A stretch of 39,627 bases of DNA from Minisyncoccia bacterium (GCA_039809245.1 JBDHUP010000005.1:1-39627); one strand, 5' to 3'; shown: positions 1-21,686, counted from the first letter of the stretch. The notes: generated from the sequence alone by a model not told the origin. A program made the numbers and translations.

Positions 1-3000
1 AGCTCTGGTGATGCTCTTGTTGTTTATTCTGCCAATGCAAGCGGTAGTGATGAGTTATTGTATCAAACTTGGGATGGAGTTACTTGGTCTGGAGCACAAA
101 CCCACAGCACATTAAGAACGAATGGAACAATATATGGAATTAAAGGAGCAGAAAGAAGTAGTTCAAATGAAATCGGAATTGTGTGGGTAGATACGAATTT
201 AAATATGTCGACAGATCTTTGGGATGGAAGTGCATGGTATGGAGAACCGAGTGCTAGTTTATGTTCAGGTGCACTCTGTACTATTGCGCGTACCGGGGGT
301 GCATCACCATCATCTGTTCCTACCCAAAGAGGTTATGACCTTGCTTTTGAATCACAGTCAGGTGACCTTATGGTGGTATGGGGAAATGATAGTTTAAGTA
401 CTACTCAAACTGATCCAAGATATATTATTAAAACAGCTGGTGGTTCATGGGGAGCTGCAGCTGGAACTGCTATTGCTAAATTAACAGAAGATGGAGAAAT
501 GCTCGATATATCTCCAAGTCCTGCTTCAGATAGAATTGCCCTAACAACTTGTGCTGTCGACTCTGGAGCAGATTGTAACTTCATTGTTTGGAGTGGAACT
601 GCATGGGGGACAGTTGCAAGTGATACAACATCAGGGACTATGATCGCCGGTGAAAGTAGTAACAATACCGAGTGGCTAGTCGATGGCGCAAATGAAGTTG
701 CGATCATGACTTATGGAGACGCTGCCGCTGCTGGTATCGACTGGTACACATCGACAAATGGAGGAACTCCTGTTGCTCAAACTGACAACAACGTCTCGCC
801 AATCATGGGAGCGGTTGCTGAACGTGCTGGGTTTTCGAAAGCATTTCCAAATGATCCATCCAAAGCCTTATTCATATTTGAAGACAACAACTCTGATGTT
901 TGGGTAAAGATTGCAAGATTACGCGGAACTCTGGTTTCTTGGTTAACTCCAGCTGGTGTTTCTGCTGCAATAGAAACAAACGCTTCAGTGATTGGTTTCA
1001 ATCCTGTTGGTTTTGGATTTAATAGATATGTATATGTGGCTCCTTCCATTTGTACATCTCAAGTGTCATCTGGAAACTGGAATACTGTTGGTACTTGGGA
1101 TTGTGGACACGTTCCTACATCTTCTGACGACGTAGTTATTGATGTCGGAGATTCTATAACAATGGATATAAATTCCGACTCTCTTCCATCTCTGACTGTA
1201 AATGGTACTCTAAATACTTCCGGTACAAACTATGATCTAACATCAGCTAGTATAAGTATAGGAAGTGCTGGATCTCTTATTGCCAATAATTCTGCAATTA
1301 ATATCACTGGAACTTCTGGAACACTTTTTACCAAGGATCCTAGTGGTACATTTACTGCGGGTGGCTCAACTTTGACTTTATCTGGGAACGGAACAGCTAC
1401 GGTAAACTCTGGAAATATTACTTTGAATAATTTAACTTTATCTGGTACAGGGACAAAGACACTAGGAGGTGATTTAACACTAGGAGGTGATTTAACTATT
1501 TCTGCAGGAACTTTCAATCCTTCTACATATGTACTAATAGTAACTGGAAATAGTTCTATTACTGGAACATTTAATGATAGTTCTGCAACTGGATCAAATA
1601 CTTTTATCGACACTGTTACTATTAATAATGGGGGAACATGGGGAACAAATACTGCAAACTCTGCTTATACATTTAGAGGAGGACTAACGGTTAATTCAAC
1701 ATCTACTTTTACATCTGGTAGTGGTACTTATACTTTTGATACTAATGCTCAAACAATTGGCGGAACACAATCTTTCACAATTACAAACTTAACTAATAGT
1801 ATTACAACAAGCACAGGTTTAACTTTCTCTTCAAACAATCCAACCGTTACTACTCTTACTCAAGGGACAAGTGCTGTTATAACATTCTCAGGAACTATTC
1901 CAACTATTACAACACTTACTGCAACCGCAAGTCCAAACACGGTTAATTACTCTGGTGCAAGTCAGACTGTTAAGGGTACAACTTACCATAACTTAACCTT
2001 ATCCGGTACAGGAGCAAAAACTACAACAGGTATAACTGTAAATGGAACATTTACAGTTGGAGGAGATGCTAGTGTAACAGTCTCCGACGTTCCAACCTAT
2101 GGATCTTCTGCAGCACTTAAATATGACAAGTCAGCTTCATTTACGACAGGAGTAGAATGGCCTTCGACTTTCTCTGCAAGTGGTGGAGTAAACATTAATT
2201 CAAATAGTGTCACTTTAGGTGGAGCTAAAATTCTTGATGATGGAGTACCGCTTCTGATTAGCTCAGGTGCTACACTCGACACTTCAGGATCAAACTATCA
2301 ATTAACTTTAGGTGGTAACTTTACTAAAACAGGGGCAACATTTACTGCGAATGCTTCACCAATAGTTATCTCCGGCACCTCCGCTCAATCCATCGCAGGA
2401 TTTACCACTACAGGTGCAGTTACATCAACAAAAACAGGAGGTACTGCAACACTTCAAGGAGCAGTTAGTGCAGGAACACTTACTGTAAATGGAGCAGGTG
2501 GAACATTAAATTTAGGATCAGGTCTCACCCACACAATTTCAGGAGCAATAACATTAACCGAAGGTACACTCGATGGTGGATCAAGTAATATCAATGCTGA
2601 TTCATTTTCTTCTTCAAACACAAACACTAGAACTCTTAATATGGGTAGTGGAACTTGGACGCTTAGTGGTACTGGAGGCTCAATTACTTACTCTGCATGG
2701 AACCCTTCAGACAAATCTGTAAATGTATCATTATCTAATAATGATTTAACTGCAAGTAGAGGGGGAGGTGTTGGTAATGTAAGAGCAACTCAAGGGGTAT
2801 CTAGCGGTAAATGGTATTGGGAAATAAAAAATATTTCCACAGGATTTAGTTATGACCAATGGATGGGTATTGCCAATTCTTCTGCTAGTTTATCTAATGC
2901 TCCAGGTCAAGGAGATGTAAATAGTTGGGCTATTGCAGTAGATGGTGGGGATTACTATCATAACGGATTTCTAGGACTTGCAAGTAATGGTACATGGCCT

Positions 3001-4005
3001 TCAGCAACTTCAGATACTTTTGGTTTTGCTCTAGATATGGATGCGGGTACATTAAAAGTTTATCAAAATAATAATATTATAATTCCACAGTCTGGAGTTT
3101 CTGGTGACCCATTATTTACTGGTATAAATGGTACTATTTATCCAATTATGTTTGTTAATGGTGAGAATACTGTTTCTACTGCTAATTTTGGTCAATCTCT
3201 AACTTATTCTCCACCAGCCGGATATAATCCTGGTCTCTATGCCGGGTCTAGTGGTCCTGTTTGGGACGCTTCAACCTCAACTGGCCTAACAGTAAATGGT
3301 GGTACCTCAACTATAAAATTAACAGATTCTTCTTCAGCAGATAAAACATTCTCTGGAGGAGGTAAGACATATAACAATTTTTGGTTTGCACCAGGATCAG
3401 GAACTGGAAGTCTAACTATAGTAGGAGATAACACTTTCAATGACTTCAAAGATGATGGATCAGTTGCTCATTCAATACTGTTTACTACTGGATCGACTCA
3501 GCATTTTGGGTCTTGGCATGTTTCAGGCCATTCTGGCCAACTTATATCAATAAATAGTACGACTACAGGTACTCACTCCCTATATATGGATGGATCAGGT
3601 GCTTCGAATGTAGATTATTTAAATATACAACACTCAGTTGCTAGTCCTTTTGGTAAATGGCTTGCTGGAGATAATAGTGTAGATAATAACTCTGTAGCAA
3701 CAGCGGGAAGTGGATGGTTGTTTAAGACACTGACTATTTATCGAGGTGGCGGAGGTAGTACTGAAACAGATAATGGTACTGGTTCTGGAAATTGTGCCGA
3801 TGGAATTCAGAATGGAAATGAAACAGGAGTAGATACCGGAGGAAGATGTTCTAATACTGGCGGCGGCGGCGGTGGTGGTACTGGCGGCGGCGGTGGTGGA
3901 GGTGGAGGTGATACTGGATTTTTGTATGGTAGAGGTAGAATGCTCGCTTCTGTTGGATACTTTAGTATTCCAGATATTTTAAGATATCTTTTTAAAATTT
4001 TTTAA
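1..4005 (+). CDS. Giant secreted/surface repeat protein with an embedded SPRY domain and a poly-Gly tail. It is 5'-partial: the frame is open from base 1, and the listed TTG at 58 is probably internal.
   Basis: Frame 1 has no stop from nt 1 to the TAA at 4003-4005. The N-terminal part repeats W-x-G-x-x-W-type motifs (YQTWDGVTWSG, LWDGSAWYG, FIVWSGTAWG). The middle ~500 aa are Thr/Gly/Ser/Asn-rich short repeats of the kind seen in beta-helix adhesins (TLSGNGTATV, LTLSGTGTKTLGGDLTLGGDLTISAGTF). The SPRY signature GKWYWEI is present, and the C-terminus carries GGGGGGGTGGGGGGGGG followed by a short hydrophobic/aromatic tail. Confidence 0.85.
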   Translation, partial: SSGDALVVYSANASGSDELLYQTWDGVTWSGAQTHSTLRTNGTIYGIKGAERSSSNEIGIVWVDTNLNMSTDLWDGSAWYGEPSASLCSGALCTIARTGGASPSSVPTQRGYDLAFESQSGDLMVVWGNDSLSTTQTDPRYIIKTAGGSWGAAAGTAIAKLTEDGEMLDISPSPASDRIALTTCAVDSGADCNFIVWSGTAWGTVASDTTSGTMIAGESSNNTEWLVDGANEVAIMTYGDAAAAGIDWYTSTNGGTPVAQTDNNVSPIMGAVAERAGFSKAFPNDPSKALFIFEDNNSDVWVKIARLRGTLVSWLTPAGVSAAIETNASVIGFNPVGFGFNRYVYVAPSICTSQVSSGNWNTVGTWDCGHVPTSSDDVVIDVGDSITMDINSDSLPSLTVNGTLNTSGTNYDLTSASISIGSAGSLIANNSAINITGTSGTLFTKDPSGTFTAGGSTLTLSGNGTATVNSGNITLNNLTLSGTGTKTLGGDLTLGGDLTISAGTFNPSTYVLIVTGNSSITGTFNDSSATGSNTFIDTVTINNGGTWGTNTANSAYTFRGGLTVNSTSTFTSGSGTYTFDTNAQTIGGTQSFTITNLTNSITTSTGLTFSSNNPTVTTLTQGTSAVITFSGTIPTITTLTATASPNTVNYSGASQTVKGTTYHNLTLSGTGAKTTTGITVNGTFTVGGDASVTVSDVPTYGSSAALKYDKSASFTTGVEWPSTFSASGGVNINSNSVTLGGAKILDDGVPLLISSGATLDTSGSNYQLTLGGNFTKTGATFTANASPIVISGTSAQSIAGFTTTGAVTSTKTGGTATLQGAVSAGTLTVNGAGGTLNLGSGLTHTISGAITLTEGTLDGGSSNINADSFSSSNTNTRTLNMGSGTWTLSGTGGSITYSAWNPSDKSVNVSLSNNDLTASRGGGVGNVRATQGVSSGKWYWEIKNISTGFSYDQWMGIANSSASLSNAPGQGDVNSWAIAVDGGDYYHNGFLGLASNGTWPSATSDTFGFALDMDAGTLKVYQNNNIIIPQSGVSGDPLFTGINGTIYPIMFVNGENTVSTANFGQSLTYSPPAGYNPGLYAGSSGPVWDASTSTGLTVNGGTSTIKLTDSSSADKTFSGGGKTYNNFWFAPGSGTGSLTIVGDNTFNDFKDDGSVAHSILFTTGSTQHFGSWHVSGHSGQLISINSTTTGTHSLYMDGSGASNVDYLNIQHSVASPFGKWLAGDNSVDNNSVATAGSGWLFKTLTIYRGGGGSTETDNGTGSGNCADGIQNGNETGVDTGGRCSNTGGGGGGGTGGGGGGGGGDTGFLYGRGRMLASVGYFSIPDILRYLFKIF
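1462..1497 (+). repeat. Tandem 2 x 18-nt duplication inside the giant gene (encodes LGGDLT LGGDLT)
   Basis: ctaggaggtgatttaaca is followed directly by ctaggaggtgatttaact, with 17 of 18 positions identical. Confidence 0.9.
2704..3235 (+). other. SPRY (B30.2-like) domain embedded in the giant surface protein
   Basis: The translated segment is NPSDKSVNVSLSNNDLTASRGGG..RATQGVSSGKWYWEIK...SWAIAVDGGDYYHNG...SDTFGFALDMDAGTLKVYQNN...IYPIMFV...STANFGQSLTYSPPAGY. It follows the classic SPRY pattern (GKWYWEV core, D-x-D-x-GTL strand, NFG..F.Y.PP.GY end). Confidence 0.75.
3859..3909 (+). repeat. GGC/GGT simple-sequence tract encoding poly-Gly
   Basis: ggcggcggcggcggtggtggtactggcggcggcggtggtggaggtggaggt, read in the frame of the giant ORF. 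Confidence 0.95.
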
Positions 4006-4023
4006 TTGAAAAATAAGATTTAA

Positions 4024-4052
4024 TTGCTGAAATCCCTTGTTTGACTTATAAT
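4024..4052 (+). promoter_or_regulatory. Candidate sigma70-type promoter (TTGCTG - 17 nt - TATAAT)
   Basis: ttgctg lies at 4024-4029, followed by a 17-nt spacer and tataat at 4047-4052. This is 15 nt upstream of the ATG at 4067. Confidence 0.45.
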
Positions 4053-4066
4053 ACATAGAGCACTAT

Positions 4067-4492
4067 ATGATCCCCATGACTAAGCGTAAATTTATAAATA
4101 TTGTTACGTCAGTGATAGTCATTACTTCACTCCTATTTGGCGGCTATTTTTATTACCAGTTTCATAAGCTTAAAAGTAGTCCTAATCTTCAAGTCCAGAA
4201 AGAAGCTCAAGATTTACTCTCAAAGGTTGCTCAAATATACCTTATTCCAACAGGTGAAGAGCCAACCATCGCAACAGTTTCTGATCCAAATGCTCTAAAG
4301 AATCAATCATTCTTTACACAATCTCAAAAAGGTGACAAAGTTCTAATATTCTCACAAGCTGGTAGAGCTGTTCTTTATCGTCCAAGTATAAATAAGATTA
4401 TAGAGACAACCCCAATTAACAATAATAAAAATGATCAAAATACCCAACCACCTGAAGAGACTTCAAGTCCACTCAAAGATAAGAGTTTCTAA
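4067..4492 (+). CDS. Small N-terminally membrane-anchored hypothetical protein
   Basis: The 141-aa ORF has a basic N-terminus followed by a TM segment (INIVTSVIVITSLLFGGYFYY), then a soluble domain and a low-complexity N/Q/P tail. I do not recognise a family. Confidence 0.6.
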   Translation: MIPMTKRKFINIVTSVIVITSLLFGGYFYYQFHKLKSSPNLQVQKEAQDLLSKVAQIYLIPTGEEPTIATVSDPNALKNQSFFTQSQKGDKVLIFSQAGRAVLYRPSINKIIETTPINNNKNDQNTQPPEETSSPLKDKSF

Positions 4493-5516
4493 ATATTTTT
4501 TACCGAGCTTAATCATAGTCTCTGTACTTTTGCCTGCTTCATATATATATGCAGCTCTTTCTTGTAGTGTTACTACTCAGACTTCTTGCAATACTAGTGG
4601 TTACACTACGCTCTTGCGCATGTCTGGTTCAACTAATGGTCACGCAGAACTCCCAAGTCAATCAAACAGTAATTACGACGCGAATGTAGTTTGTTGTTCG
4701 GGTATTTCCTCTCTCGGGAATTCATGTTCAGGTAATTATCAAATTTTTAATAAAATCTCAGCAGTAACAAATGCTCATGTTCAAGAAACAAGTGTAAATA
4801 CTTATGGTACAAATGCGTGTATATCTGATTCAATAGGGAATGATACGATAACTGTTGGTTATCAGAACACAAATTGTTCAGGTTACGATACGACACTTTT
4901 ATCAATGTCAGCATCTGATAATGCTTCTGTTGGCGATGGATCAGCTTACACAAGAAAAGTTTGCGCTACAGTGACTCAACCAACTCTAACTTTCGATTTA
5001 GATACTGCATCAGATTTTCATAACGGTGAATCAAGTGCTCCTTACTCAGTCGCTCTTGGGACTTTGACTACAGGGTCCGTAGCTGTTTCAGATGACTCAT
5101 CTATAAGAATGATAGTTGCGGAAGGTGATACAAATGCTGCTGGTGGAATGATTGTTACAGTTATGAATACAAATGGTGCAAGTGGACTAAAATCTGTGTC
5201 TGTTCCAGCCGACACAATCCCAAGTGCTACTGCACCAATGGCTGCTGGTACTGCAAACTATGGACTATGTGTAGCATCTTCAGGTCTAACTGGATTTTCA
5301 AGAGCCACAGCTTATAACACAACATGTGCTCTAGCTTCTGGTACGAATAATGTCGTAGGATTAACTTCAACTCCAGCAGATATTCTAAACTCAGCTGGCG
5401 CTCCGGTAACATCTGCTCATGCTGAAATAGTGGTAAATGCAGCTATAGATTCTGTAACACCAGCACATTCAGATTATGAAGATAAGTTGACATTTATTGC
5501 GACAGGTACGTTTTAA
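4431..5516 (+). CDS. Secreted surface protein, paralog A: Cys-rich variable N-domain plus conserved C-terminal module
   Basis: The signal-like N-terminus is YFLPSLIIVSVLLPASYIYA/AL. The N-domain has 11 Cys with repeated motifs (TLLRMSGSTNGHAE, KISAVTNAHVQE, TLLSMSASDNASVGD). The C-terminal ~176 aa are about 88% identical, by hand alignment, to the C-terminus of 5623..6789. The start overlaps the previous ORF by 62 nt, so the start is uncertain. Confidence 0.7.
   Translation: MIKIPNHLKRLQVHSKIRVSKYFLPSLIIVSVLLPASYIYAALSCSVTTQTSCNTSGYTTLLRMSGSTNGHAELPSQSNSNYDANVVCCSGISSLGNSCSGNYQIFNKISAVTNAHVQETSVNTYGTNACISDSIGNDTITVGYQNTNCSGYDTTLLSMSASDNASVGDGSAYTRKVCATVTQPTLTFDLDTASDFHNGESSAPYSVALGTLTTGSVAVSDDSSIRMIVAEGDTNAAGGMIVTVMNTNGASGLKSVSVPADTIPSATAPMAAGTANYGLCVASSGLTGFSRATAYNTTCALASGTNNVVGLTSTPADILNSAGAPVTSAHAEIVVNAAIDSVTPAHSDYEDKLTFIATGTF
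4987..5516 (+). repeat. Copy 1 of a ~530-nt direct repeat (3' module shared by the two paralogous genes)
   Basis: It aligns without gaps to 6260..6789. The alignment includes long identical runs, such as actttcgatttagatactgcatcagattttcataacggtgaatcaagtgctccttactcagtcgctcttgg and cttcaactccagcagatattctaaactcagctggcgctccggtaacatctgctcatgctgaaatagtggtaaatgcagctata. Confidence 0.9.
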
Positions 5517-5569
5517 TGTTATATAAGTTATCCCCAGCATTAATTTATATATCTTTTCCTTGTTTTTTA

Positions 5570-5578
5570 TGTTAAAAT
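5570..5578 (+). promoter_or_regulatory. Candidate extended -10 element (TGtTAAAAT) upstream of paralog B
   Basis: tgttaaaat sits at 5570-5578 in the 106-nt AT-rich spacer. I found no convincing -35. Confidence 0.3.
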
Positions 5579-5622
5579 ATAGGTACATTAGTTAAAAATT
5601 TATTATTAATTATTTATTTTTT

Positions 5623-6789
5623 ATGAGTATATATAAGTCAGAAAGGTCTGTTCTATCAAAGTTTATAAGTGCTATTACAATTCTCTCTCTTGTAGCTGTT
5701 TTAGTTGCTCCTGCTAAGATCGCAGTTGCTGCCTCTTTGACGACTTTATACGATGTTCAATCTAGAATGGAAGCAAGTACTGCAAGTGATCATACTATTT
5801 ACTTTAAAACTCCTTCAGGAGTGGCAAGTGGAGGTACAATCACTTATACATTCTCGGCTGGATTTACAGGTATAGGTTCAATGGTTGGTGCAGATTTTGA
5901 CCTCGCTGTTGCTACCACAAACGCTGCTTGTACATCTGCTTCATATACAGAACAAAGCGTAGTTACATCTTCTCCTTCTACATCACAATTCAGTATAGCT
6001 GGTTCAGGTCAAGTAGTTACAGTTACTTCAGGAGGCGCCAGTGCAACTATTGCCGCTGATCGCTGTGTTAGATTGAAAGCAGGTTTAAATGCTACTGATA
6101 CAACAGGTTCTGGTCCAGGTACTCATCAAATAACAAACGGTGCTATTGGTTCTACTGATACTATTACTATCGCAGGAAGTTTCGGTGATACAGGTTCAAT
6201 CACTGAAGATATAATAGATAGTGATCAGGTTAGTATTACTGCAGATGTTGGACAATCTTTGACTTTCGATTTAGATACTGCATCAGATTTTCATAACGGT
6301 GAATCAAGTGCTCCTTACTCAGTCGCTCTTGGAACTTTGACTACAGGATCAGTTACTCACTCTGATGATACAGCGATAAGAATGATAGTTGCGGAAGGTG
6401 ATACAAGTGCATCAGGTGGTATGGTTGTAACAGTTAGGAATACTAATGGCGCTAGTGGGCTAGTTTCAACTGGAACTCCAGCCGATACAATCCCAAGTGC
6501 TACAGCAACTATGGCTGCTGGAACTGCAAACTATGGACTATGCGTAGCATCTTCAGGTTTAACTGGATTTTCAAGAGCCACAGCTTATAATACATCATGC
6601 GCTCTAGCTTCTGGTACAAATGCTGTAGTAGGTCTAACTTCAACTCCAGCAGATATTCTAAACTCAGCTGGCGCTCCGGTAACATCTGCTCATGCTGAAA
6701 TAGTGGTAAATGCAGCTATAAGTACTGCGACTCCTGCTCATCCTGATTATACTGATCGTCTTACATTTATAGCGACAGGTACATTCTAA
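5623..6789 (+). CDS. Secreted surface protein, paralog B: different N-domain plus the same conserved C-terminal module
   Basis: The signal/anchor is FISAITILSLVAVLVAPAKIAVAAS. The N-domain (SLTTLYDVQSRMEASTASDHTIYFKTPSGVASGGTITYTFSAGF...) is unrelated to paralog A. The C-terminal module, from LTFDLDTASDFHNGESSAPYSVALGTLTTGSV to LTFIATGTF, is shared with 4431..5516. Confidence 0.8.
   Translation: MSIYKSERSVLSKFISAITILSLVAVLVAPAKIAVAASLTTLYDVQSRMEASTASDHTIYFKTPSGVASGGTITYTFSAGFTGIGSMVGADFDLAVATTNAACTSASYTEQSVVTSSPSTSQFSIAGSGQVVTVTSGGASATIAADRCVRLKAGLNATDTTGSGPGTHQITNGAIGSTDTITIAGSFGDTGSITEDIIDSDQVSITADVGQSLTFDLDTASDFHNGESSAPYSVALGTLTTGSVTHSDDTAIRMIVAEGDTSASGGMVVTVRNTNGASGLVSTGTPADTIPSATATMAAGTANYGLCVASSGLTGFSRATAYNTSCALASGTNAVVGLTSTPADILNSAGAPVTSAHAEIVVNAAISTATPAHPDYTDRLTFIATGTF
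6260..6789 (+). repeat. Copy 2 of the ~530-nt direct repeat
   Basis: See 4987..5516. Confidence 0.9.
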
Positions 6790-6814
6790 TTTTAACTAAG
6801 GTAACTTATTAGTA

Positions 6815-7843
6815 ATGAAATCTTACTTCCACAACAGGAATATTCTGATAATTTTCGTAATGATACTAATAGGTGTTTTCTATGGTTCAAATCATGTTTA
6901 CGCTCTAACTATAAGCCCTGTCAGAATTGAAGTTAGTGGTAATCCAGGGGAAACAATATCTGAAGATATTTTAATAAAGAATGAGAGTGAATCTACCATG
7001 ACTTACTATTCTTCGTTCTCAAACTTTCAATCACAAGGTGAATCAGGAACTCCTTCTTTTGTTGATGCAAAAGATGATTTAGGTACATGGATGGATACAG
7101 CTACATCCATTGTCTTGAAGGGAAGTGAGTCAAAGTATATAAAATTAAATATTACTATTCCAAATAATGCAGAACCAGGTGGACATTTCGCTGCTGTTTT
7201 TTGGGGTACTAATCCTAATGATACCAAAGGAGTTTCTATTGGTGCAAAAACAGGTACTCTGATTCTTTTGTCTGTTAATGGAGATGTGAAAGAAAGTGCA
7301 GGGTTAGTCGATTTCTCTACGAAGGATAACAAATTTTGGTACAATACATTACCGGTGTCATTTACTTATAGATTCAGGAACGATGGAGGTGATCGTATTA
7401 AACCAGTAGGTAAGATTACGATGCGAGATCTAGTCTATCTTCCAGCTGCTCGTATAGATGCAAATCCATCAAATGGTAACATTCTTCCAAACAGTACTAG
7501 GAGATTCGATGTAGATTGGGTAAAACATCCAAGACCTAAAGATTACATTTCACCAACAGGTACAATAAATAAATTCTTCGATCAAGCATTGTATCAATGG
7601 AGAAATTTTGCTATGGGACCATACTTTGTAAAAATGAGCTTACTCTATGGAACAGAAGCAAGTAGGATATCAAAAAATGTTTTCATTTTTGTATTTCCAT
7701 GGCAGTTAATTTTATGCCTTCTTATTATATTTATAATAGTATTCTGGGGTGGAAAGAAACTCATCAAACGCTACAATAGGCATATTATAAAGAAGGCACG
7801 CGCTGGTATGAACACACCAAACGATTTGCCTTCTCATGTATAA
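6815..7843 (+). CDS. Membrane-anchored surface protein with two Ig-like/PapD-like domains (architecture resembles DUF916/DUF3324 proteins of Firmicute WxL loci)
   Basis: It has a signal peptide (ILIIFVMILIGVFYGSNHVYA/LT) and a beta-rich ectodomain (ISPVRIEVSGNPGETISEDILIKNESESTMTY...NITIPNNAEPGGHFAAVFWGT). A C-terminal TM segment (WQLILCLLIIFIIVFWGG) is followed by a basic tail (KKLIKRYNRHIIKKAR). The family assignment rests on architecture only. Confidence 0.7.
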   Translation: MKSYFHNRNILIIFVMILIGVFYGSNHVYALTISPVRIEVSGNPGETISEDILIKNESESTMTYYSSFSNFQSQGESGTPSFVDAKDDLGTWMDTATSIVLKGSESKYIKLNITIPNNAEPGGHFAAVFWGTNPNDTKGVSIGAKTGTLILLSVNGDVKESAGLVDFSTKDNKFWYNTLPVSFTYRFRNDGGDRIKPVGKITMRDLVYLPAARIDANPSNGNILPNSTRRFDVDWVKHPRPKDYISPTGTINKFFDQALYQWRNFAMGPYFVKMSLLYGTEASRISKNVFIFVFPWQLILCLLIIFIIVFWGGKKLIKRYNRHIIKKARAGMNTPNDLPSHV

Positions 7844-8726
7844 AAAATATATAGTAAAAATTTTATATTCTTTCCTGTTTGCGACTCTACTTTTTTCGCA
7901 ATCTGTTTATGCTGGGACTATAGTTAGTTCACCTATAGATGTAAGTGTATCCGCAAAAGTTGGTATAGATATAATAGTTCCACCAGATGATGGAGGAGGT
8001 GGAGGTAGTGGTTTCCCTACGGGAGTTATATTTTCTGGTTGGGCTTATCCAGGAGCCAGTGTGCATGTTTGGAAAAATGGTGCCCCTAAAGATACCACAA
8101 TAGCAAGGCCGGATGGTTACTTTACAATAAGACTAAATGAAATATATAATCCGAATATATTCTACACTCTGTATGCTATAGATAAGGACAGTAGAAGATC
8201 ATTACTTTTGAATTATCCAATCGTTGTAAAAGCTGGATATTTAACGCAAATAAGTGGAATTAGATTTGCTCCTACAATAGAGACAGATAAGACTGAAGTA
8301 AAATTTGGAGATAGTATAACTGTCTTAGGCTATGCTTTACCTAGCACTCCTATTGTTCTAACTGTAGAAAAATTTCAAGATAGAGTATTTCACTTTATGA
8401 GTAATAGTGACGGTACTTATAGTATAAACCTACCGCTTGATGGTCTAAAAAAAGGCGATTATAAATTGTATGTTAATTATGAAAATGATAATAGAATAAG
8501 TAAGGTCATACAGTTTACGATAGGAGATGTGAATGTTCCAAGCGTTCTTCTTACTAATAATATTCCAGGGGACTGTAATGCTGATAGCATTATCAATATT
8601 ATAGATTTCTCTGTTGCGGCTTTTTGGTATGGAAAGAAGAATCCTCCACGATGTATAGATACAAATAATGATAATAAGATAGATTTGATAGACTTCTCTA
8701 TATTAGCGTTCTATTGGACTGGTTAA
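7836..8726 (+). CDS. Secreted protein with Ig-like (carboxypeptidase-regulatory-like) domains and a C-terminal type-I-like dockerin
   Basis: The signal peptide is ILYSFLFATLLFSQSVYA/GT. The last 52 aa contain two 12-residue F-hand loops, DCNADSIINIID (8571-8606) and DTNNDNKIDLID (8658-8693). Both have D/N at positions 1, 3, 5, 9 and 12, and each is followed by a DFS-helix (IIDFSVAAFWYG, LIDFSILAFYW). The ATG overlaps the stop of the upstream gene (ATGTATAA). Confidence 0.8.
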   Translation: MYKKYIVKILYSFLFATLLFSQSVYAGTIVSSPIDVSVSAKVGIDIIVPPDDGGGGGSGFPTGVIFSGWAYPGASVHVWKNGAPKDTTIARPDGYFTIRLNEIYNPNIFYTLYAIDKDSRRSLLLNYPIVVKAGYLTQISGIRFAPTIETDKTEVKFGDSITVLGYALPSTPIVLTVEKFQDRVFHFMSNSDGTYSINLPLDGLKKGDYKLYVNYENDNRISKVIQFTIGDVNVPSVLLTNNIPGDCNADSIINIIDFSVAAFWYGKKNPPRCIDTNNDNKIDLIDFSILAFYWTG

Positions 8727-8748
8727 TGGTATAATAATATATAAGATT

Positions 8749-9606
8749 ATGAAGAAATTCCTACTTATTATCGCTATATTTTTAACTAACATACTTATTG
8801 CAAATGCGGCAAGTATTTCTGTATCGGCGCCAAAATCTTCTGATATAAACCAGAATATAAGTGTCTTGGTAAATCTTGATACTGATAGTACTTCAATAAA
8901 TTCTTTCGATATAACACTTTCTTATCCTAACGATTTGGTTAGTTTTAAGGGTTACAAAGAGGAAGGTTCTATTAATAAGTTATGGATATCTCAACCAAAA
9001 GATATTGGTGGGGCTATTAACTTTAGTGGAGTTATTCCAGGAGGTGTGGATGGTGTTTATGATCCAGAAAAAGGAGGGATCCAACCTATTCCATTGATTA
9101 CTTTACTTTTTTCTACAACAAATGAAGGGAGTGGTGATTTTATTATTAAAAACTCAAATGTTCTAAAGAATGATGGGTTAGGGACAACTCTTTCTTATGA
9201 AGTAAATAATTCTTCTATCGTTATCTCTAAACTTGAAAGCAAAAATTCTGATGAGAGTAAAGTTGATATAAATCCACCAGAACCATTCGAAATTCAATAT
9301 ATACCAGCTGGTTTGTTTTAAAAAACCCCGCCAATAATTATTTTCTCTGCAACAGATAAAGAGTCTGGTATAGAAAAATATCAAATGAAAACTCTTGGTC
9401 ATTGGAAAGAGGTTACAAGTCCTAAAGCCGTCTCTAGAAACTTATTAAAGAAAGATATTCGAATTAGAGCGATAGATTTTAGTGGAAATATTCGTGAATC
9501 TAGCATCGATATACCAGGATTTATATCAAATACACAGTTATTACTTATAGTTTTAGGTATATTAATTTGTTACTATATTTATATTACAGTAAAAAGAAAA
9601 AGATGA
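8749..9606 (+). pseudogene. Cohesin-like, C-terminally membrane-anchored surface protein interrupted by a single in-frame TAA at 9319-9321
   Basis: ORFs 8749..9321 and 9385..9606 are in the same frame, and the only stop between them is the TAA at 9319. Read through, the protein is ...PPEPFEIQYIPAGLF*KTPPIIIFSATDKESGIEKYQMKTLGHWKEVTSP...IRAIDFSGNIRES, followed by a TM anchor (LLLIVLGILICYYIYI) and KRKR. The N-terminal part (ISVSAPKSSDINQNISVLVNLDTDSTSINSFDITLSYPNDLVSFKGY...) is cohesin-like. The terminal TGA overlaps the next ATG (ATGA at 9603-9606), which is typical of a genuine upstream gene end. Confidence 0.7.
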
Positions 9607-10742
9607 AATTATCGATAAAAGTCATATTATTTAATAGTATTTTGGTTTATATGTTGTGTGCTAGCACCGCAGATGCTTCTTCTTCTCTTTTCATGACCAA
9701 ATCAGCATCCAATATATCAGAAGGAGATCAAATTACACTAAACGTAAAAGTGAAATCTACCGATCAAGCTATTAATGCAGTCACAGGCTCAATTAATTTC
9801 CCTGGTGATATGTTAAAAACCGTTTCAATATCTAGGGATAGTAGTATTTTAAATATTTGGACACATGACCCTAATATACAGAGGAATAAGATAAATTTTG
9901 AGGGAGTTATACTCAATCCTGGTTATCAGGGTAGTGATGGTGAAATATTACATGTAACTTTTGAAGCGATAAAAAGGGGTACAGCTACTGTAACTTTTGG
10001 AGAAGGAGCTCTTCTTGCAAATGATGGATTAGGTACAAATATAATCACACAGCTTTCCCCGATAAGTTTTAATATAACATCTCCTGGATCTCTTGATTTA
10101 ATTGATAATAGTAGAAATGTTGCTACTTCAAGAATCCCATCTAATAAGCTTGCCTTACCTGTTATTACTGACTACTCACAATCTATATTTTCTAAAGATG
10201 TTGCATACCTGAAGGGAAAAGGTGAACCGAGAGCTTTAACGAAGATAGTTTTTGAAGATGTTTCTCATAAGTCATTTGGGGAACAGTTCATGGATTTCAT
10301 CCAATCAAAGAAAAAAAGATTAACAGATGTTCTTGTTAAGAATAAAGAAGATGGCTCATTTGAGTATACAACATCTAATAATCTCGTTGCTGGAGTCTAT
10401 AATGCTACACCATTTTTGGTAGATGACAATACAAATACCGACAAGCCAGGCTTAGGGGTACAACTATTTATTAAAGATAGTAAGGTTATAAAGTGGCTGA
10501 TAGTATTCATTAATATCCTCATACTATTAATACCTATAGCTGGGCTTATAATGATTGTCTATTTCATACCTTGGTATTCTTCTCGTAAAATGCGTATTTT
10601 AAAGAGAAAGATGGGTCTTGAGGAAGAGAAAATTGAGATTACTCAGCATCAATTAGAAAGGCAAGACCAGATGATGGGTAGAGTAAATGAGGTTAGTCAA
10701 GCTAATAAATATACACAGGATTCTATAGGTAATAATAGCTAA
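9603..10742 (+). CDS. Cohesin-like, C-terminally membrane-anchored surface protein with a cytoplasmic coiled-coil tail
   Basis: The likely start is the ATG at 9603 (MKLSIKVILFNSILVYMLCASTADA signal), not the listed 9567. The cohesin-like module is SEGDQITLNVKVKSTDQAINAVTGSINFPGDMLKTVSISRD...GEILHVTFEAIKRGTATVTFGEGALLANDGLGTNI. The TM segment is WLIVFINILILLIPIAGLIMIVYFIPWY, followed by a charged tail. Confidence 0.75.
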   Translation: MKLSIKVILFNSILVYMLCASTADASSSLFMTKSASNISEGDQITLNVKVKSTDQAINAVTGSINFPGDMLKTVSISRDSSILNIWTHDPNIQRNKINFEGVILNPGYQGSDGEILHVTFEAIKRGTATVTFGEGALLANDGLGTNIITQLSPISFNITSPGSLDLIDNSRNVATSRIPSNKLALPVITDYSQSIFSKDVAYLKGKGEPRALTKIVFEDVSHKSFGEQFMDFIQSKKKRLTDVLVKNKEDGSFEYTTSNNLVAGVYNATPFLVDDNTNTDKPGLGVQLFIKDSKVIKWLIVFINILILLIPIAGLIMIVYFIPWYSSRKMRILKRKMGLEEEKIEITQHQLERQDQMMGRVNEVSQANKYTQDSIGNNS

Positions 10743-10760
10743 TGTTATATAATTATATCA

Positions 10761-11861
10761 ATGAAACGTATATACCACGGTCTGGTTTCCCCTATACTGA
10801 TTCTTATAATAGCGACCATTCCGTTCTCAGGAATGGCTGATAGTAGTATATTGAGCCCTCAAGAGAATTTGTGGCTGAAGTCTCGTAATAATACTATTAT
10901 CGTTTATCCTGAAAAGAACCACCCACCATATTCTTACCAAAATTCTTCAGGAATACCACAAGGACTATCAATAGATTATATAGAATTAATTGGTCAAAAA
11001 ATTGGAGCAAAAATTGAATACCTACCGGCTAGACCTCTTTCACAGATACTCGATGATGTAAAACAGGGTGACAAAGGGGATGTTATAACTTCACTGGCTG
11101 ATACAAAAGAGAGAGAAGAACTTTTATATTTTTCTGATACATATGTAAACGTACCAGCTGTCATTGTTGTACGTAAAGATTCTGATATCGGTAATGCTCT
11201 GACACTCAGTAGTCTATCTGGTAAAAGAGTAGCAATAGGAAGTAAATATGCAGTTGAGGAATTCGTAAGAGTTACAAATCCAAGAGTTATTATTGAATCA
11301 GTCATAGACGATGAATCAGGTTTGCAACAGGTAGTACTAGGTGAAGTTGATGCAGCTATAATGGATGTAGCTTCTTTGTCCTACTATCTATCGAAGCAAG
11401 TTTTAAATAGTGTAAAAATTGTAGGAAGTACAGGCTTTGAGTACAAGCTTGCTTTTGCTGTCCCAAAGAGTAAGGAAATATTACAATCAATCTTAGATAA
11501 AGGGTTACAGCAAGTAAGCGAATCTGACCGTAATGCTTTAAATGATAAATGGATTAATATATCAAATTACGATGGTGGTACAGCTCAATCAATATTCTCA
11601 GATATAAGTAAAAATACAAGTACAATAGTTATGTATATATTATTATTATTATTTATTGTAGTAATAATTTTGTTTTTAAAACGAAACCATTATTCAGGAT
11701 ATATACCTATGAGATATACAAGGAAGGTCTCAGATATAGATGATCTAAAAGAAGAAATTGCAGAGCTCGAACATACAAGTGAGAGTTTGATTGAAGAGTT
11801 GAAAGACGTAAAGAATTTAGAGCAAGACATCAAAGAGAAAATACATAATATAGAGAAGTAA
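10761..11861 (+). CDS. Membrane protein with an extracytoplasmic family-3 solute-binding (SBP_bac_3) domain, one TM segment and a short coiled-coil tail; no output domain
   Basis: It has a signal/anchor, then PPYSYQNSSGIPQGLSIDYIELIGQKIGAKIEYLP...LYFSDTYVNVPAVIVVRKD...LSGKRVAIGSKYAVEEF...VDAAIMDVASLSYYL. This is the typical periplasmic amino-acid-binding/sensor fold pattern. The TM segment is IVMYILLLLFIVVIILFL, followed by a ~60-aa charged heptad-like tail. Confidence 0.7.
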   Translation: MKRIYHGLVSPILILIIATIPFSGMADSSILSPQENLWLKSRNNTIIVYPEKNHPPYSYQNSSGIPQGLSIDYIELIGQKIGAKIEYLPARPLSQILDDVKQGDKGDVITSLADTKEREELLYFSDTYVNVPAVIVVRKDSDIGNALTLSSLSGKRVAIGSKYAVEEFVRVTNPRVIIESVIDDESGLQQVVLGEVDAAIMDVASLSYYLSKQVLNSVKIVGSTGFEYKLAFAVPKSKEILQSILDKGLQQVSESDRNALNDKWINISNYDGGTAQSIFSDISKNTSTIVMYILLLLFIVVIILFLKRNHYSGYIPMRYTRKVSDIDDLKEEIAELEHTSESLIEELKDVKNLEQDIKEKIHNIEK

Positions 11862-11930
11862 TTGCTCCTAATTTAGCTAAAATAACCTTAATATATATAG
11901 CTCTAAGGGCTTTCTTTTGGTCTTAAATTT

Positions 11931-20043: not shown

Positions 20044-20066
20044 AACTACTCATTAAGAGTAGTTTT
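20042..20066. terminator. Bidirectional terminator between convergent smc and the CapA/VanY gene
   Basis: aaaactactc (20042-20051) pairs perfectly with gagtagtttt (20057-20066) around an attaa loop. The hairpin overlaps the stop codon of the minus-strand gene. Confidence 0.7.
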
Positions 20067-21686
20067 ATTTTCTTTTAAATATTCATTTACTGTTTGGCCA
20101 CTTTCTTTTATGGCTTTAGCATTTTCAATTCCTACATATCGGTAGTGCCATGCTTCATACATGTAACCGGTTATATCTTCTTTATCTTCTGGGTAGCTTT
20201 CTGAGAATCCATAAAGATAAGCATTTTTCCTAAGCCATTTATCTTCTACTGTTCCCTTAAACCTAGTCGTAGCTGACATGTTATCAATAGATGAACCTGT
20301 TAAATCTACAGCAACTCCTAGTTGGTGTTCAGAATGTCCAGGCTTTGCAACTGCAATAGATGCATTCTTATTTCCTTCTGCTATATTCCTCTCAAGTATA
20401 CTTTTCTGAGTTGCGTAATCTCTGAATCCAGAAGATACCTTTATTTTTACACCTTCTGTTTTTGCTTTCGTTATCATTTTCGTTATCGCTTCAGCTGCTT
20501 CTTCCTTTATACATACAGGTATAGTAGTAATTTTTTTATCCAGTAACTTTAAATCTGAAGGTATATAATGTTCGTCAGGTATAGCTACTTCTTGCCCGAC
20601 ATCTAGGTATGAGTAATCTGGATACTTTTTATCTGGGACTGGGCAAGGGTTTGGCACAGGCTTTTCTTCTGGAAATTCAAATATTCCTTCAGGTTGATAT
20701 TTTTTATTTAGAGTTATTAACTTTTTATTTGTTTCTATTAAGTCTTTACCTAAAAATGTAGCTTCAAATAACATTCCTTTCATTGTATCTTTTGAGAAAT
20801 ATTGGTCAAAAATAAAGTTCCCAAGAGAATATACAATTGGATGTTCTTTATATATTTCTATATCTTGCATTGTATGAGGGTGATGACCTACTACAATATC
20901 TGCTCCATTATCTATAGCTGTGTGGGCAAGAGCCTCCTGTTTTTTATTATGAGTTTTCTCATATTCAGTGCCCCAATGGAAAGAAACTATTAATACATCT
21001 ACTTGTTGTTTTGCGTTTTTGATAATTTCTCCAAGTCTCGGATCGCTTGCAAGAAGAATACCAGCTGATGTATCGGTAGCTTTAATCCAGTCAGGTCCTA
21101 CATCAGAGAATCCGATGAATCCGAATTTTACTCCATTTTTCTCTATTATCTTTGGAATTTCTGCTTCACTTTTATTCATACCTGCTCCTGTTTGTAAGAT
21201 TCCAGCATTGTCTAACCTATTGAGAGTATCTTTAAAAGCGCCAATATTCCAGTCTCCAACATGATTATTTGCAAAAGAGACTATATCAAAACCTGCATTA
21301 TTAATAGCTTCTAAAACAATAGGATCCATCCTGAATGAGTATTTACTCCCAACATTATTCCCAATATCTGAGACAGGACCCTCTAAATTTCCAAATAAAA
21401 TATCAGCATTTTTTAGTTCTCTTAGATTTGTAAAAAGTTGATTATAATCGCCTCCAAAATTTTTTACTACAGAAGTTTTTACACTTCGATCAAGCATCAT
21501 ATCGCCAACAAAATATATTTTAGTTTCTTTTGCTGGTATTTCTTCTACAATAGGAACTTCATTAACAGCAGCTGTCTGTGTTTCAGATTTAACACTCTCT
21601 ACTGTTTTTGAAATTGAGTATCCTAGGTTTACCCATATAATAGCTATAAATATAGCAAGTATTGTAATTGTTGTTTTTCTTCTCAT
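20046..21686 (-). CDS. Membrane-anchored fusion of a CapA/PGA_cap metallophosphoesterase-type domain and a C-terminal VanY/M15B D-Ala-D-Ala carboxypeptidase domain
   Basis: It has an N-terminal TM segment (TITILAIFIAIIWVNLGY). CapA-type motifs are YFVGDMMLDRS, FANNHVGDW, SFHWGTEYE and VVGHHPH. The M15B motifs at the C-terminus are SSGFRDYATQ, KPGHSEHQLGVAVDL and EAWHYRYVG. Confidence 0.85.
   Translation of the reverse strand: MRRKTTITILAIFIAIIWVNLGYSISKTVESVKSETQTAAVNEVPIVEEIPAKETKIYFVGDMMLDRSVKTSVVKNFGGDYNQLFTNLRELKNADILFGNLEGPVSDIGNNVGSKYSFRMDPIVLEAINNAGFDIVSFANNHVGDWNIGAFKDTLNRLDNAGILQTGAGMNKSEAEIPKIIEKNGVKFGFIGFSDVGPDWIKATDTSAGILLASDPRLGEIIKNAKQQVDVLIVSFHWGTEYEKTHNKKQEALAHTAIDNGADIVVGHHPHTMQDIEIYKEHPIVYSLGNFIFDQYFSKDTMKGMLFEATFLGKDLIETNKKLITLNKKYQPEGIFEFPEEKPVPNPCPVPDKKYPDYSYLDVGQEVAIPDEHYIPSDLKLLDKKITTIPVCIKEEAAEAITKMITKAKTEGVKIKVSSGFRDYATQKSILERNIAEGNKNASIAVAKPGHSEHQLGVAVDLTGSSIDNMSATTRFKGTVEDKWLRKNAYLYGFSESYPEDKEDITGYMYEAWHYRYVGIENAKAIKESGQTVNEYLKENKTTLNE

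Follow-up and report, generated by a model that had tools for sequence, protein, structure and literature searches.

A conserved gene string of Patescibacteria joining a WxLIP-family protein with a cohesin–dockerin set: a candidate surface-anchoring module

In the WxL (Csc) clusters of Firmicutes, one WxLIP protein is encoded together with two adjacent WxL proteins, the WxLIP being a protein of two Ig domains with a C-terminal transmembrane helix (PMC10599100 and PMC9772566). The definition by Hassan and Williamson comprises a signal peptide, DUF916 (PGBD), DUF3324 (HBD) and a C-terminal transmembrane helix within about 320–380 amino acids (aa); the same authors call a small LPXTG protein frequent but not obligatory in these clusters and report an AlphaFold2 (AF2) prediction for the Firmicute system in which a hairpin of the WxLIP inserts into the WxL (PMC10599100). 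In addition, the title of PDB entry 9i25 records a WxLIP bound to a long WxL. A second type of anchoring is represented by the cellulosomal anchoring scaffoldins and by non-cellulosomal pairs such as those of NagJ of Clostridium perfringens, with C-terminal dockerins and cell-bound cohesins. Here we describe a stretch of 39,627 nucleotides (nt) from a Minisyncoccia bacterium (GCA_039809245.1, JBDHUP010000005.1:1-39627), in the following called the window, whose positions 1–10742 hold eight surface genes, g1–g8, which recall both types.

The locus probably, though by no means certainly, serves Patescibacteria (class Paceibacteria/Minisyncoccia-like) as a conserved, operon-like module for surface anchoring, based on two non-covalent plug-and-socket pairs. 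The first socket would be g5, which would be held in the membrane by its C-terminal helix and capture secreted proteins ending in a lineage-specific constant module (CM). Its cargo would be g3 and g4 here, joined in relatives by adhesin-like giants and by CM proteins with genes elsewhere in the genome, in parallel to Firmicutes, where the WxLIP binds WxL proteins, small and large, by their C-terminal WxL domain. The second socket would consist of the cohesins g7 and g8, likewise membrane-held by C-terminal helices and capturing g6 through its C-terminal Ca-binding dockerin. As a net effect, variable adhesin-like heads free of enzymes would be displayed, in a locus devoid of LPXTG sorting signals. 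The giant g1 and the small anchored g2 are conserved companions. Gene content, homologies, domain positions and synteny are observed in the sequences, and we infer both binding steps, the surface localisation and a role in attachment or host contact.

All eight genes are consecutive open reading frames (ORFs) on the plus strand, and the intergenic gaps from g1 to g8 measure 61, −62, 106, 25, −8, 22 and −4 nt; the reading frames of g5 and g6 overlap by 8 nt and those of g7 and g8 by 4 nt, and the gap of −62 nt lies between g2 and g3. An N-terminal hydrophobic segment is present in each of g2–g8, and g5, g8 and, with its stop codon read through, g7 also possess a C-terminal transmembrane helix. 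Pfam and NCBIfam scans of g1–g8 gave no enzyme domain, and a C-terminal LPXTG motif was absent from g1–g9. An earlier note, made from the window alone, had described eight same-strand genes for proteins with a signal peptide or transmembrane segment and no enzymes among them, tightly spaced and in part overlapping. This description is borne out wherever it can be checked (the N-terminus of g1 lies outside the window), the measured gaps ranging from 61 to −62 nt apart from the one of 106.

The conservation of this arrangement was followed in 80 loci, each taken with 10-kb flanks from a species-representative GTDB genome, and in further contigs (loci labelled L001 and so on). The genomes sampled are those of Paceibacteria, Nomurabacteria, Parcubacteria and Minisyncoccia, many of the metagenome-assembled genomes (MAGs) being automatically labelled 'Saccharibacteria', and the ORFs of the loci were searched with the window proteins and with profiles of their orthologs. 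The locus was found in every related genome sampled. Nearly everywhere the genes follow one another on one strand in the order giant–g2–g3–g4–g5–g6–g7–g8–(g9)–gyrB (84 related loci; 80 species-level genomes), and since this order recurs in 80 species-level genomes it is taken to be more than chance. All 75 loci with enough flank have a CM gene as the immediate upstream neighbour of g5, and in 66 of 73 loci g6 followed by a cohesin gene lies downstream of g5. Three of the seven exceptions to the latter order are artefacts or rearrangements: L033 is masked by N bases, g6 is split in L040, and L079 contains the same genes in another order. The other four are L073, in which just g5 and g6 were seen, and the distant lineages L080, L083 and L084. 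A fusion of g5 and g6 in L033 was ruled out as an artefact of the masked bases. The comparison of the neighbourhood across related MAGs, which the earlier note had called for, therefore gave a strong positive result, and instead of genes scattered independently in the relatives a conserved order was found.

The usual set of the locus is two CM genes, one g5, one dockerin gene and two cohesin genes. In the census, exactly one dockerin ORF was counted in each of 71 loci, always with the dockerin at the C-terminus, whereas two CM ORFs were present in 61 loci and two cohesin ORFs in 55, with three in another nine. Cassettes of CM gene and g5 are duplicated together in L079 and L080, which fits a cognate pairing of the two products.

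The central component is g5 (6815–7843, plus strand), a protein of 342 aa in which a signal peptide is followed by two Ig-like beta-sandwich domains, a C-terminal transmembrane helix (aa 291–309) and a basic cytoplasmic tail, in agreement with the Ig-like anchored protein predicted from the window. No gene of the locus is better conserved: g5 has 749 database homologs at 53–70 % identity, and all of those with a named source are Patescibacteria proteins listed as unnamed or hypothetical. Within the locus as a whole, conservation peaks in the transmembrane helix and basic tail of g5 (7685–7843; 'FFFVFPWQL...GGKKLIKRYNRxIIxKAR'), with 68 % mean pairwise identity and many invariant columns.

The window copy of g5 scores 13.6 bits with Pfam WxLIP_PGBD, below the cut-off of 27.3, and 22 of 28 orthologs give sub-threshold matches as well; no match to DUF3324 was obtained in these 28 orthologs. 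Because the window copies are sub-threshold, the assignments were made by way of ortholog alignments. A tblastn search of plasmids with g5 retrieved annotated DUF916 proteins of Clavibacter (2e-7) and Cellulosimicrobium (6e-6), both of which lie above the Pfam WxLIP_PGBD cut-off. Comparison of the g5 alignment with the Clavibacter DUF916 protein by hhalign gave a probability of 98.1 % (E 1.1e-13) over 270 columns comprising both extracellular domains and the transmembrane helix. The AF2 model of g5 (mean pLDDT 80.6) shows two beta-sandwiches and a long C-terminal helix, and its best fold match in the PDB is 9i25_C, 'WxLIP from Enterococcus faecium locus A bound to long WxL' (E 7.9e-11), followed by 9i1y (1.4e-10). 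The pilus chaperones CfaA, CsuC and FimC as well as RbmA come close behind, with TM-scores of 0.3–0.5. Taken alone such fold evidence is generic, and it counts for the WxLIP family because it agrees with the sequence evidence. A search of PDB sequences with the g5 profile yielded nothing even at E ≤ 10, which was judged a false negative, since both the fold search and hhalign reach WxLIP. On these sequence and model comparisons g5 is a member of the DUF916/WxLIP family. The 'PGBD' proteins that are reported as highly expressed in Paceibacteria (PMC10936435) were considered as g5 orthologs and ruled out, since they are of the PG_binding_1 type (1lbu).

The two genes upstream of g5 encode secreted proteins that share their C-terminal part. 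g3 (4431–5516, plus strand; 361 aa) consists of a signal-peptide-like segment, a Cys-rich variable N-terminal head and the CM (about nt 4960–5513), and g3-type genes are syntenic across the related loci. g4 (5623–6789, plus strand; 388 aa) has a variable N-terminal beta-sandwich head (aa 38–200) and a CM at aa ~205–388 (nt 6235–6786); its AF2 model has a mean pLDDT of 87.9 and two beta domains. Thus both follow the pattern of a variable head on a conserved CM. In the C-terminal region 158 of 185 residues are identical (85 %), so that the two constant-module paralogs of the earlier note are real, and at the DNA level a direct repeat of 525 nt (4979–5503 versus 6252–6776) has an identity of 86–88 %. 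Both proteins are acidic (pI ~4.2), with 28–30 % Ser plus Thr, few Cys and zero Trp. The CMs of g3 and g4 are 88 % alike within this genome versus at most 75 % to any other species; the same within-genome similarity exists in L079 (100 %) and L069, and the two copies of most genomes are 45–70 % identical. The pattern suggests that CM copies now and then undergo gene conversion or were recently duplicated.

An exhaustive profile search of 1.84 billion proteins found 558 representatives of the CM family. The CM reaches the last residue in all of the best 150 of these 558, on carriers of 123–2955 aa, and 147 of 148 ORFs in the loci carry it at their very C-terminal end. Upstream of g5 it also ends giant proteins of 840–2955 aa (L034, L037, L044, L052, L064, L070, L078 and L091). 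The eight large CM carriers that were scanned contained FG-GAP repeats, Ig-like domains or no domain, and no enzymes; two large carriers are encoded away from g5. Always terminal, on varied carriers and behind enzyme-free heads, the CM behaves as an anchoring tag, as far as its distribution in sequences can tell. In L091 a sortase gene (PF04203; 5998–6696) precedes the gene of the giant CM protein by about 1.3 kb.

The CM is not recognisable as a WxL domain. Neither g3 nor g4 contains a W-x-L motif, and Pfam and NCBIfam scans of the two window proteins gave nothing. Among 32 members of the g4 family no Pfam family was matched, Pfam WxL not even at E ≤ 0.1. The CM profile against PDB sequences likewise yielded nothing at E ≤ 10, and the fold search with the g4 model did not return the WxL chain of 9i25 within the top 50; its two-domain matches were generic adhesins and integrins (TM ~0.2) and its single-domain matches TTHA1873 and CfaB. 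A likeness of the CM motifs 'GTNAxSG-[YM]-x-[VIL]' and 'AGxY..TLT[FY]xA' to 'GTxAG-W-x-L' of WxL is mentioned here as an observation and is not counted as evidence.

Compared with the WxL (Csc) clusters, the locus shares a WxLIP homolog of the same layout (342 aa versus 337–365), the combination of one such protein with two adjoining partners, a partner module that is always C-terminal on small and giant adhesin-like carriers, and a small anchored companion. Because the locus in this way reproduces the logic of the WxL clusters, g5 is predicted to be the membrane receptor of the CM. Set beside the published definition, g5 agrees in size, layout, hhalign and fold, whereas its second domain gives no DUF3324 match and its own Pfam score is sub-threshold. 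Instead of two adjacent WxL-domain proteins (dual Trp-x-Leu, Pfam WxL) there are two adjacent partners with a different module, which resembles WxL neither by Trp-x-Leu or Pfam WxL nor by fold or profile. A C-terminal anchor domain on both small and large carriers is found in the relatives, the giant g1 of the window being devoid of CM, and in place of the small LPXTG protein there is g2 with an N-terminal transmembrane anchor. The host is a member of the candidate phyla radiation (CPR), the site is in the core genome, and the genes are joined in one string with a cohesin–dockerin set. Of the term WxL-locus-like, which the earlier note had chosen, the part that refers to g5 homology and architecture holds and the part that refers to the CM does not, with regard to Trp, Pfam WxL and the fold matches in the top 50. 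The locus would thus work like a WxL cluster and, judged by homology, share its central component by descent, but it should not be filed as one because the CM fails the defining WxL features.

A few observations concern the actinobacterial relatives of g5. The Clavibacter DUF916 protein has a 'PW'-transmembrane-basic tail similar to that of g5. On the two plasmids (L085, 6046–7888; L086, 6101–7915), whose hosts are Cellulosimicrobium and Clavibacter, the DUF916 gene is preceded by an unannotated gene for a secreted protein of about 210 aa, which has no Pfam match and shows the WxL-like motifs 'VTVTDTR...GWYV' and '...GxYSSTLTLxLFE'; the pair lies amid GH43/LamG genes and may, on these motifs, be an unrecognised actinobacterial version of WxL/WxLIP. 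With the CM this protein gave an hhalign probability of just 0.4 %. A tblastn search of plasmids for canonical Firmicute WxL/WxLIP returned the actinobacterial DUF916 loci alone.

The second pair begins with g6 (7836–8726, plus strand), a secreted protein of 296 aa that begins with a signal peptide and continues with a short conserved strand, poly-Gly, two Ig-like domains (Big_6/CarboxypepD_reg-like) and a C-terminal dockerin (aa 244–296, nt 8565–8723). Dockerins of the type I-like family PF00404 consist of two tandem segments of about 22 residues with EF-hand-like Ca loops (D1, N/D3, D5, D12), and two such segments are present in g6, with the loops DCNADSIINIID and DTNNDNKIDLID both intact. 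The Asp/Asn positions of the loops are invariant in an alignment of 30 orthologs. The window copy reaches 16.3 bits with Dockerin_1 (cut-off 22.9), while 26 of 30 orthologs match Dockerin_1 (best 1.5e-8) and 29 of 30 match Big_6, and the ortholog profile finds the PDB dockerins 2y3n_B (9.3e-7) and 5nrm_B (3.6e-4). With 62 % mean pairwise identity versus 35–41 %, the dockerin is the best-conserved part of the protein. Loops, Pfam matches of the orthologs and PDB profile matches agree with one another and with the earlier prediction of a dockerin protein, and by this sequence evidence g6 is a protein ending in a true dockerin. The orthologs in L069, L074 and L076 carry a Cys-rich insert 'CGDG..GE.CD...' after the signal peptide, which resembles the motif 'CADGIQNGNETGVDTGGRC' in the C-terminal region of g1 (window ~3780–3850).

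g7 (8749–9606, plus strand) encodes a cohesin-like protein, in which a signal peptide and a cohesin module (about nt 8812–9243) are followed by a linker and a C-terminal transmembrane helix. A single in-frame TAA at 9319–9321 divides it into a cohesin part of 190 aa and a part of 95 aa with the transmembrane anchor, whereas the orthologs are uninterrupted (~290–300 aa). This codon reads TCA (Ser) in L087 and L088, which are independent assemblies of the same organism, so that the difference is a single C-to-A change at 9320. Readthrough or recoding of the stop codon was therefore ruled out, and to judge from these sequences the TAA stems from a nonsense mutation particular to the strain or from an error of assembly. 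g8 (9603–10742, plus strand) comprises a signal peptide, a cohesin module (about nt 9678–10082), an Ig-like middle, a C-terminal transmembrane helix and some 60 aa of cytoplasmic tail. The ATG of g8 and the stop codon of g7 overlap (ATGA); the longest possible ORF begins at the TTG at 9567. The middle region resembles Ig repeats of Bap (7dm0_A, 1.2e-4).

Neither window protein matched Pfam Cohesin (PF00963), and single-sequence searches of the PDB with both were empty. Five of 25 g7 orthologs match Pfam Cohesin (best 2e-4), and the g7 profile has cohesins as seven of its eight best matches in the PDB, but with E values of 0.06–0.15. The g8 orthologs match it in 11 of 27 cases (best 2.2e-16) and Big_13 in seven of 27, the syntenic ortholog in L001 having a precomputed PF00963 match. 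g7 and the N-terminus of g8 are 25 % identical (E 6e-10). By transitive homology both would be cohesins at the family level. Of the two anchored cohesins announced by the earlier note the cohesin identity thus stands by way of the orthologs; just one of them is anchored as encoded, the transmembrane helix of g7 being cut off by the TAA. A Ca-dependent binding of the g6 dockerin to g7/g8 is predicted from sequence and finds support in the conserved adjacency of the genes.

With cellulosomal anchoring scaffoldins and the NagJ pairs the locus has in common a C-terminal dockerin with two Ca segments and cell-bound cohesins, and the logic implied by the sequences would be shared, with an anchored cohesin holding a secreted protein by its dockerin. 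Unlike them, it has no enzymes, carbohydrate-binding modules or multi-cohesin scaffoldins, the cohesins are held by a C-terminal transmembrane helix and not by SLH domains or sortase, and a single dockerin cargo per locus, with two Ig-like domains, is permanently linked to a WxLIP-type module. Within the Patescibacteria, SEML1_0315 of the cultured Saccharibacterium Southlakia epibionticum is a dockerin-domain surface protein which is reported, from transposon sequencing, to be essential for epibiotic growth (PMC10633639). It resembles g6 as a dockerin-bearing Ig-domain protein of the cell envelope. However, it is encoded by a lone gene (927 aa) with unrelated flanking genes and was ruled out as a member of an equivalent operon. 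Full-text literature searches retrieved no paper linking DUF916/WxLIP to CPR, and WxL, cohesin and dockerin were found together only in general reviews of surface display; the combination is not described there, as the earlier note had supposed. What appears to be new, as read from sequence, is that an anchoring module based on a WxLIP has a new partner tag and is joined permanently to a cohesin–dockerin trio in the CPR core genome.

The companion genes lie upstream of the CM pair. g1 (1–4005, plus strand) is the C-terminal part, 1334 aa, of a giant secreted adhesin-like protein, frame 1 being open from the first base and the gene continuing to the left. It contains W-rich repeats, a G8 domain (nt 1093–1302; E 7e-8), a long Thr/Ser/Gly-rich repeat region, a SPRY domain (PF00622; nt 2809–3195; E 1.9e-6, 28.4 bits versus the Pfam cut-off of 26.3), a poly-Gly tandem repeat (nt 3855–3903) and an aromatic tail; both domain matches come from sub-sequence scans. 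With SPRY above the Pfam cut-off, g1 is indeed the giant repeat/SPRY protein reported before. Orthologs have 1600–3000 aa and a signal peptide or PATR repeats, the complete ones beginning with a signal peptide or a transmembrane segment. The end of g1 (3855–4005) consists of the poly-Gly tract and a conserved aromatic-rich tail of about 30 aa, 'DxGFxY...[RN][ML]x[FA]...', which is shared by the giant orthologs of L003, L007, L013, L015, L016, L038, L042, L046, L047 and L053 and matched none of the known sorting signals tested. In other lineages the giant proteins have a CM where the sub-lineage of the window has this tail. g2 (4067–4492, plus strand; 141 aa) is composed of an N-terminal transmembrane anchor (residues 9–27) and a conserved extracellular domain of about 55 aa with the consensus 'PTIATVSDPxxLKxQSFF..KGDKVLI..A.KAVLYRPS'. 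Related loci contain 42 conserved, syntenic ORFs of this type, and g2 had no significant Pfam match.

Regarding the limits of the unit, the earlier note had placed it at 1–10742. The eight genes are all present there. Its left end, however, probably lies outside the window, g1 being open at the edge, and its right-hand boundary is probably 11861, the end of a ninth gene. This gene, g9 (10761–11861, plus strand), encodes a membrane-anchored solute-binding-like protein (SBP_bac_3, E 5e-23; transmembrane helix 288–306; cytoplasmic coiled coil). It starts 18 nt past g8 on the same strand and is found between g8 and gyrB in many related loci, sometimes duplicated; the boundary was moved because g9 is co-oriented, follows g8 so closely and is syntenic in the sub-lineage of the window. 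g9 may be part of the same transcription unit as g1–g8. A terminator-like hairpin is located beyond it at 11899–11911. A scan of promoters and terminators gave counts not above those of shuffled controls, and for this reason no operon boundaries are claimed from it. The window contained no Rfam family and no tRNA. Its remainder is made up of housekeeping genes (gyrB, thrS, nusB, rnc, smc, RNase R, trmD, rpoB, rpoC, dnaG and rpoD). Amid these otherwise informational genes, positions 20046–21686 on the minus strand encode a cell-envelope enzyme, a fusion of PGA_cap (poly-gamma-glutamate capsule synthesis-like) and VanY D-Ala-D-Ala carboxypeptidase. Another envelope-type gene was noticed downstream of the surface locus in L033 (15295–20972), encoding an RHS/YD-repeat-like protein with FG-GAP/VCBS-like repeats (1892 aa) that runs off the end of the locus.

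Several points weigh against two linked plug-and-socket pairs. The CM is without detectable homology to WxL domains by Pfam, PDB profile, fold or hhalign; its pairing with g5 is for this reason an argument from adjacency and analogy. The TM-scores of g5 with WxLIP are low (0.29–0.38, the orientation of the domains being different) and pilus chaperones score similarly, and the window copies of g5, g6, g7 and g8 all remain below the curated Pfam cut-offs, their assignment having come through orthologs and profiles. The g1 of the window's lineage has no CM by which it could be held. In the distant lineages L080, L083 and L084 there are repeated cassettes of CM gene and g5 without dockerin or cohesin genes nearby. 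Finally, the near-invariant cytoplasmic tail of g5 hints, by its sequence conservation, at a function beyond passive anchoring.

The same tail can be read in a more far-reaching way. The whole string (giant, g2, CM proteins, g5, g6, g7/g8 and possibly g9) could be one surface organelle of the core genome and the principal episymbiotic attachment device of Paceibacteria-class CPR. g5 would be its hub, because the nearly invariant transmembrane helix and tail suggest a link to something inside the cell; the CM would be an unrecognised Trp-less counterpart of WxL, directing a multitude of adhesin-like cargoes to g5, some of them with genes elsewhere, and the cohesin–dockerin trio and the poly-Gly-tethered peptides of g1 and g6 would tie the structure together. 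This extension is conceivable, but we regard it as doubtful.

An envelope coat in place of an adhesion device would also account for part of the data. In Sulfolobus, SlaA forms a surface layer whose subunits stand on the membrane stalk SlaB; by the same logic g4, with or without g3, would be an abundant self-assembling subunit, g5 its stalk and the cohesin–dockerin trio a second component of the layer. The position of the locus in the core genome amid gyrB, thrS, rpoBC, dnaG and rpoD, its occurrence in every related genome sampled and the conservation of g5 (53–70 % identity, unusually high for a surface protein) would suit such a structure. The same is true for the acidic, Ser/Thr-rich and Cys-poor composition of g3/g4, as in many S-layer proteins, and for their combination of a variable outward with a conserved inward domain. 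However, Pfam and NCBIfam detected no SLH, CWB2 or other S-layer domain in g1–g9 or in 32 members of the g4 family, and the CM also ends giants of 1000–2955 aa with FG-GAP/Ig heads, for which a tag of many cargoes fits better than a lattice subunit; a coat is held to be unlikely. Still less probable is a fibre or pilus built by strand complementation, as in the class 5/archaic chaperone–usher pili (CfaA/CfaB, CsuC/CsuA/B), with g5 as a membrane-tethered chaperone or platform, the CM proteins as pilin-like subunits joined by donor-strand exchange and the giant as tip adhesin. The two-Ig g5 model does match CfaA (3.6e-10, TMt 0.46–0.48), CsuC and FimC, and the single-domain matches of the g4 model include CfaB, the major pilin of CFA/I (probability 0.99, TMt 0.52). 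The short conserved poly-Gly-tethered terminal peptides of g6 and g1 would be candidate donor strands, and the insertion of a WxLIP hairpin into WxL predicted for Firmicutes (PMC10599100) points in the same direction. Chaperone–usher systems possess an outer-membrane usher and a soluble periplasmic chaperone, but the locus has no usher-like or large membrane protein, no sortase and no assembly ATPase, nor is an outer membrane implied. g5 is anchored by a transmembrane helix, unlike the chaperones, and its fold matches, like those of g4, have low TM-scores and are to Ig-like sandwiches of a generic kind.

It is also improbable that CM/g5 and dockerin/cohesin are two unrelated modules which share an operon without cooperating. 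The cassettes of L080, L083 and L084, which have no dockerin or cohesin genes nearby, the different order in L079 and the CM proteins encoded elsewhere in the genome speak for such independence, yet the two sets are adjacent and in the same order in 66–69 of 73 species, with overlapping or near-overlapping frames at g5/g6 (−8 nt) and g7/g8 (−4 nt). As a variant of this idea the locus would capture nutrients, with the co-oriented and syntenic SBP_bac_3 protein g9 as uptake end. A precedent is the proposal of carbohydrate utilisation for the Csc/WxL clusters of Lactobacillus (Siezen et al. 2006, PMC1534035), although no glycoside hydrolase, carbohydrate-binding module or transporter permease was found in the locus.

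A surface-anchoring module of two plug-and-socket pairs is thus preferred, and its significance would lie in the following. Few members of the CPR/Patescibacteria can be cultivated, and the attachment of the non-Saccharibacteria lineages to hosts and surfaces is largely obscure. For these lineages the locus offers a defined candidate set of components for surface display, in fixed order among essential informational genes. The predicted binding pairs can be addressed with recombinant ectodomains and hence culture-free, and the CM may serve as a sequence tag by which probable surface cargo is listed from genomes alone. The cohesin–dockerin pair would be a clean natural case unlinked to polysaccharide breakdown. 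Furthermore, the anchoring principle of WxLIP/DUF916 would extend beyond Firmicutes and Actinobacteria into the CPR, with a different partner module.

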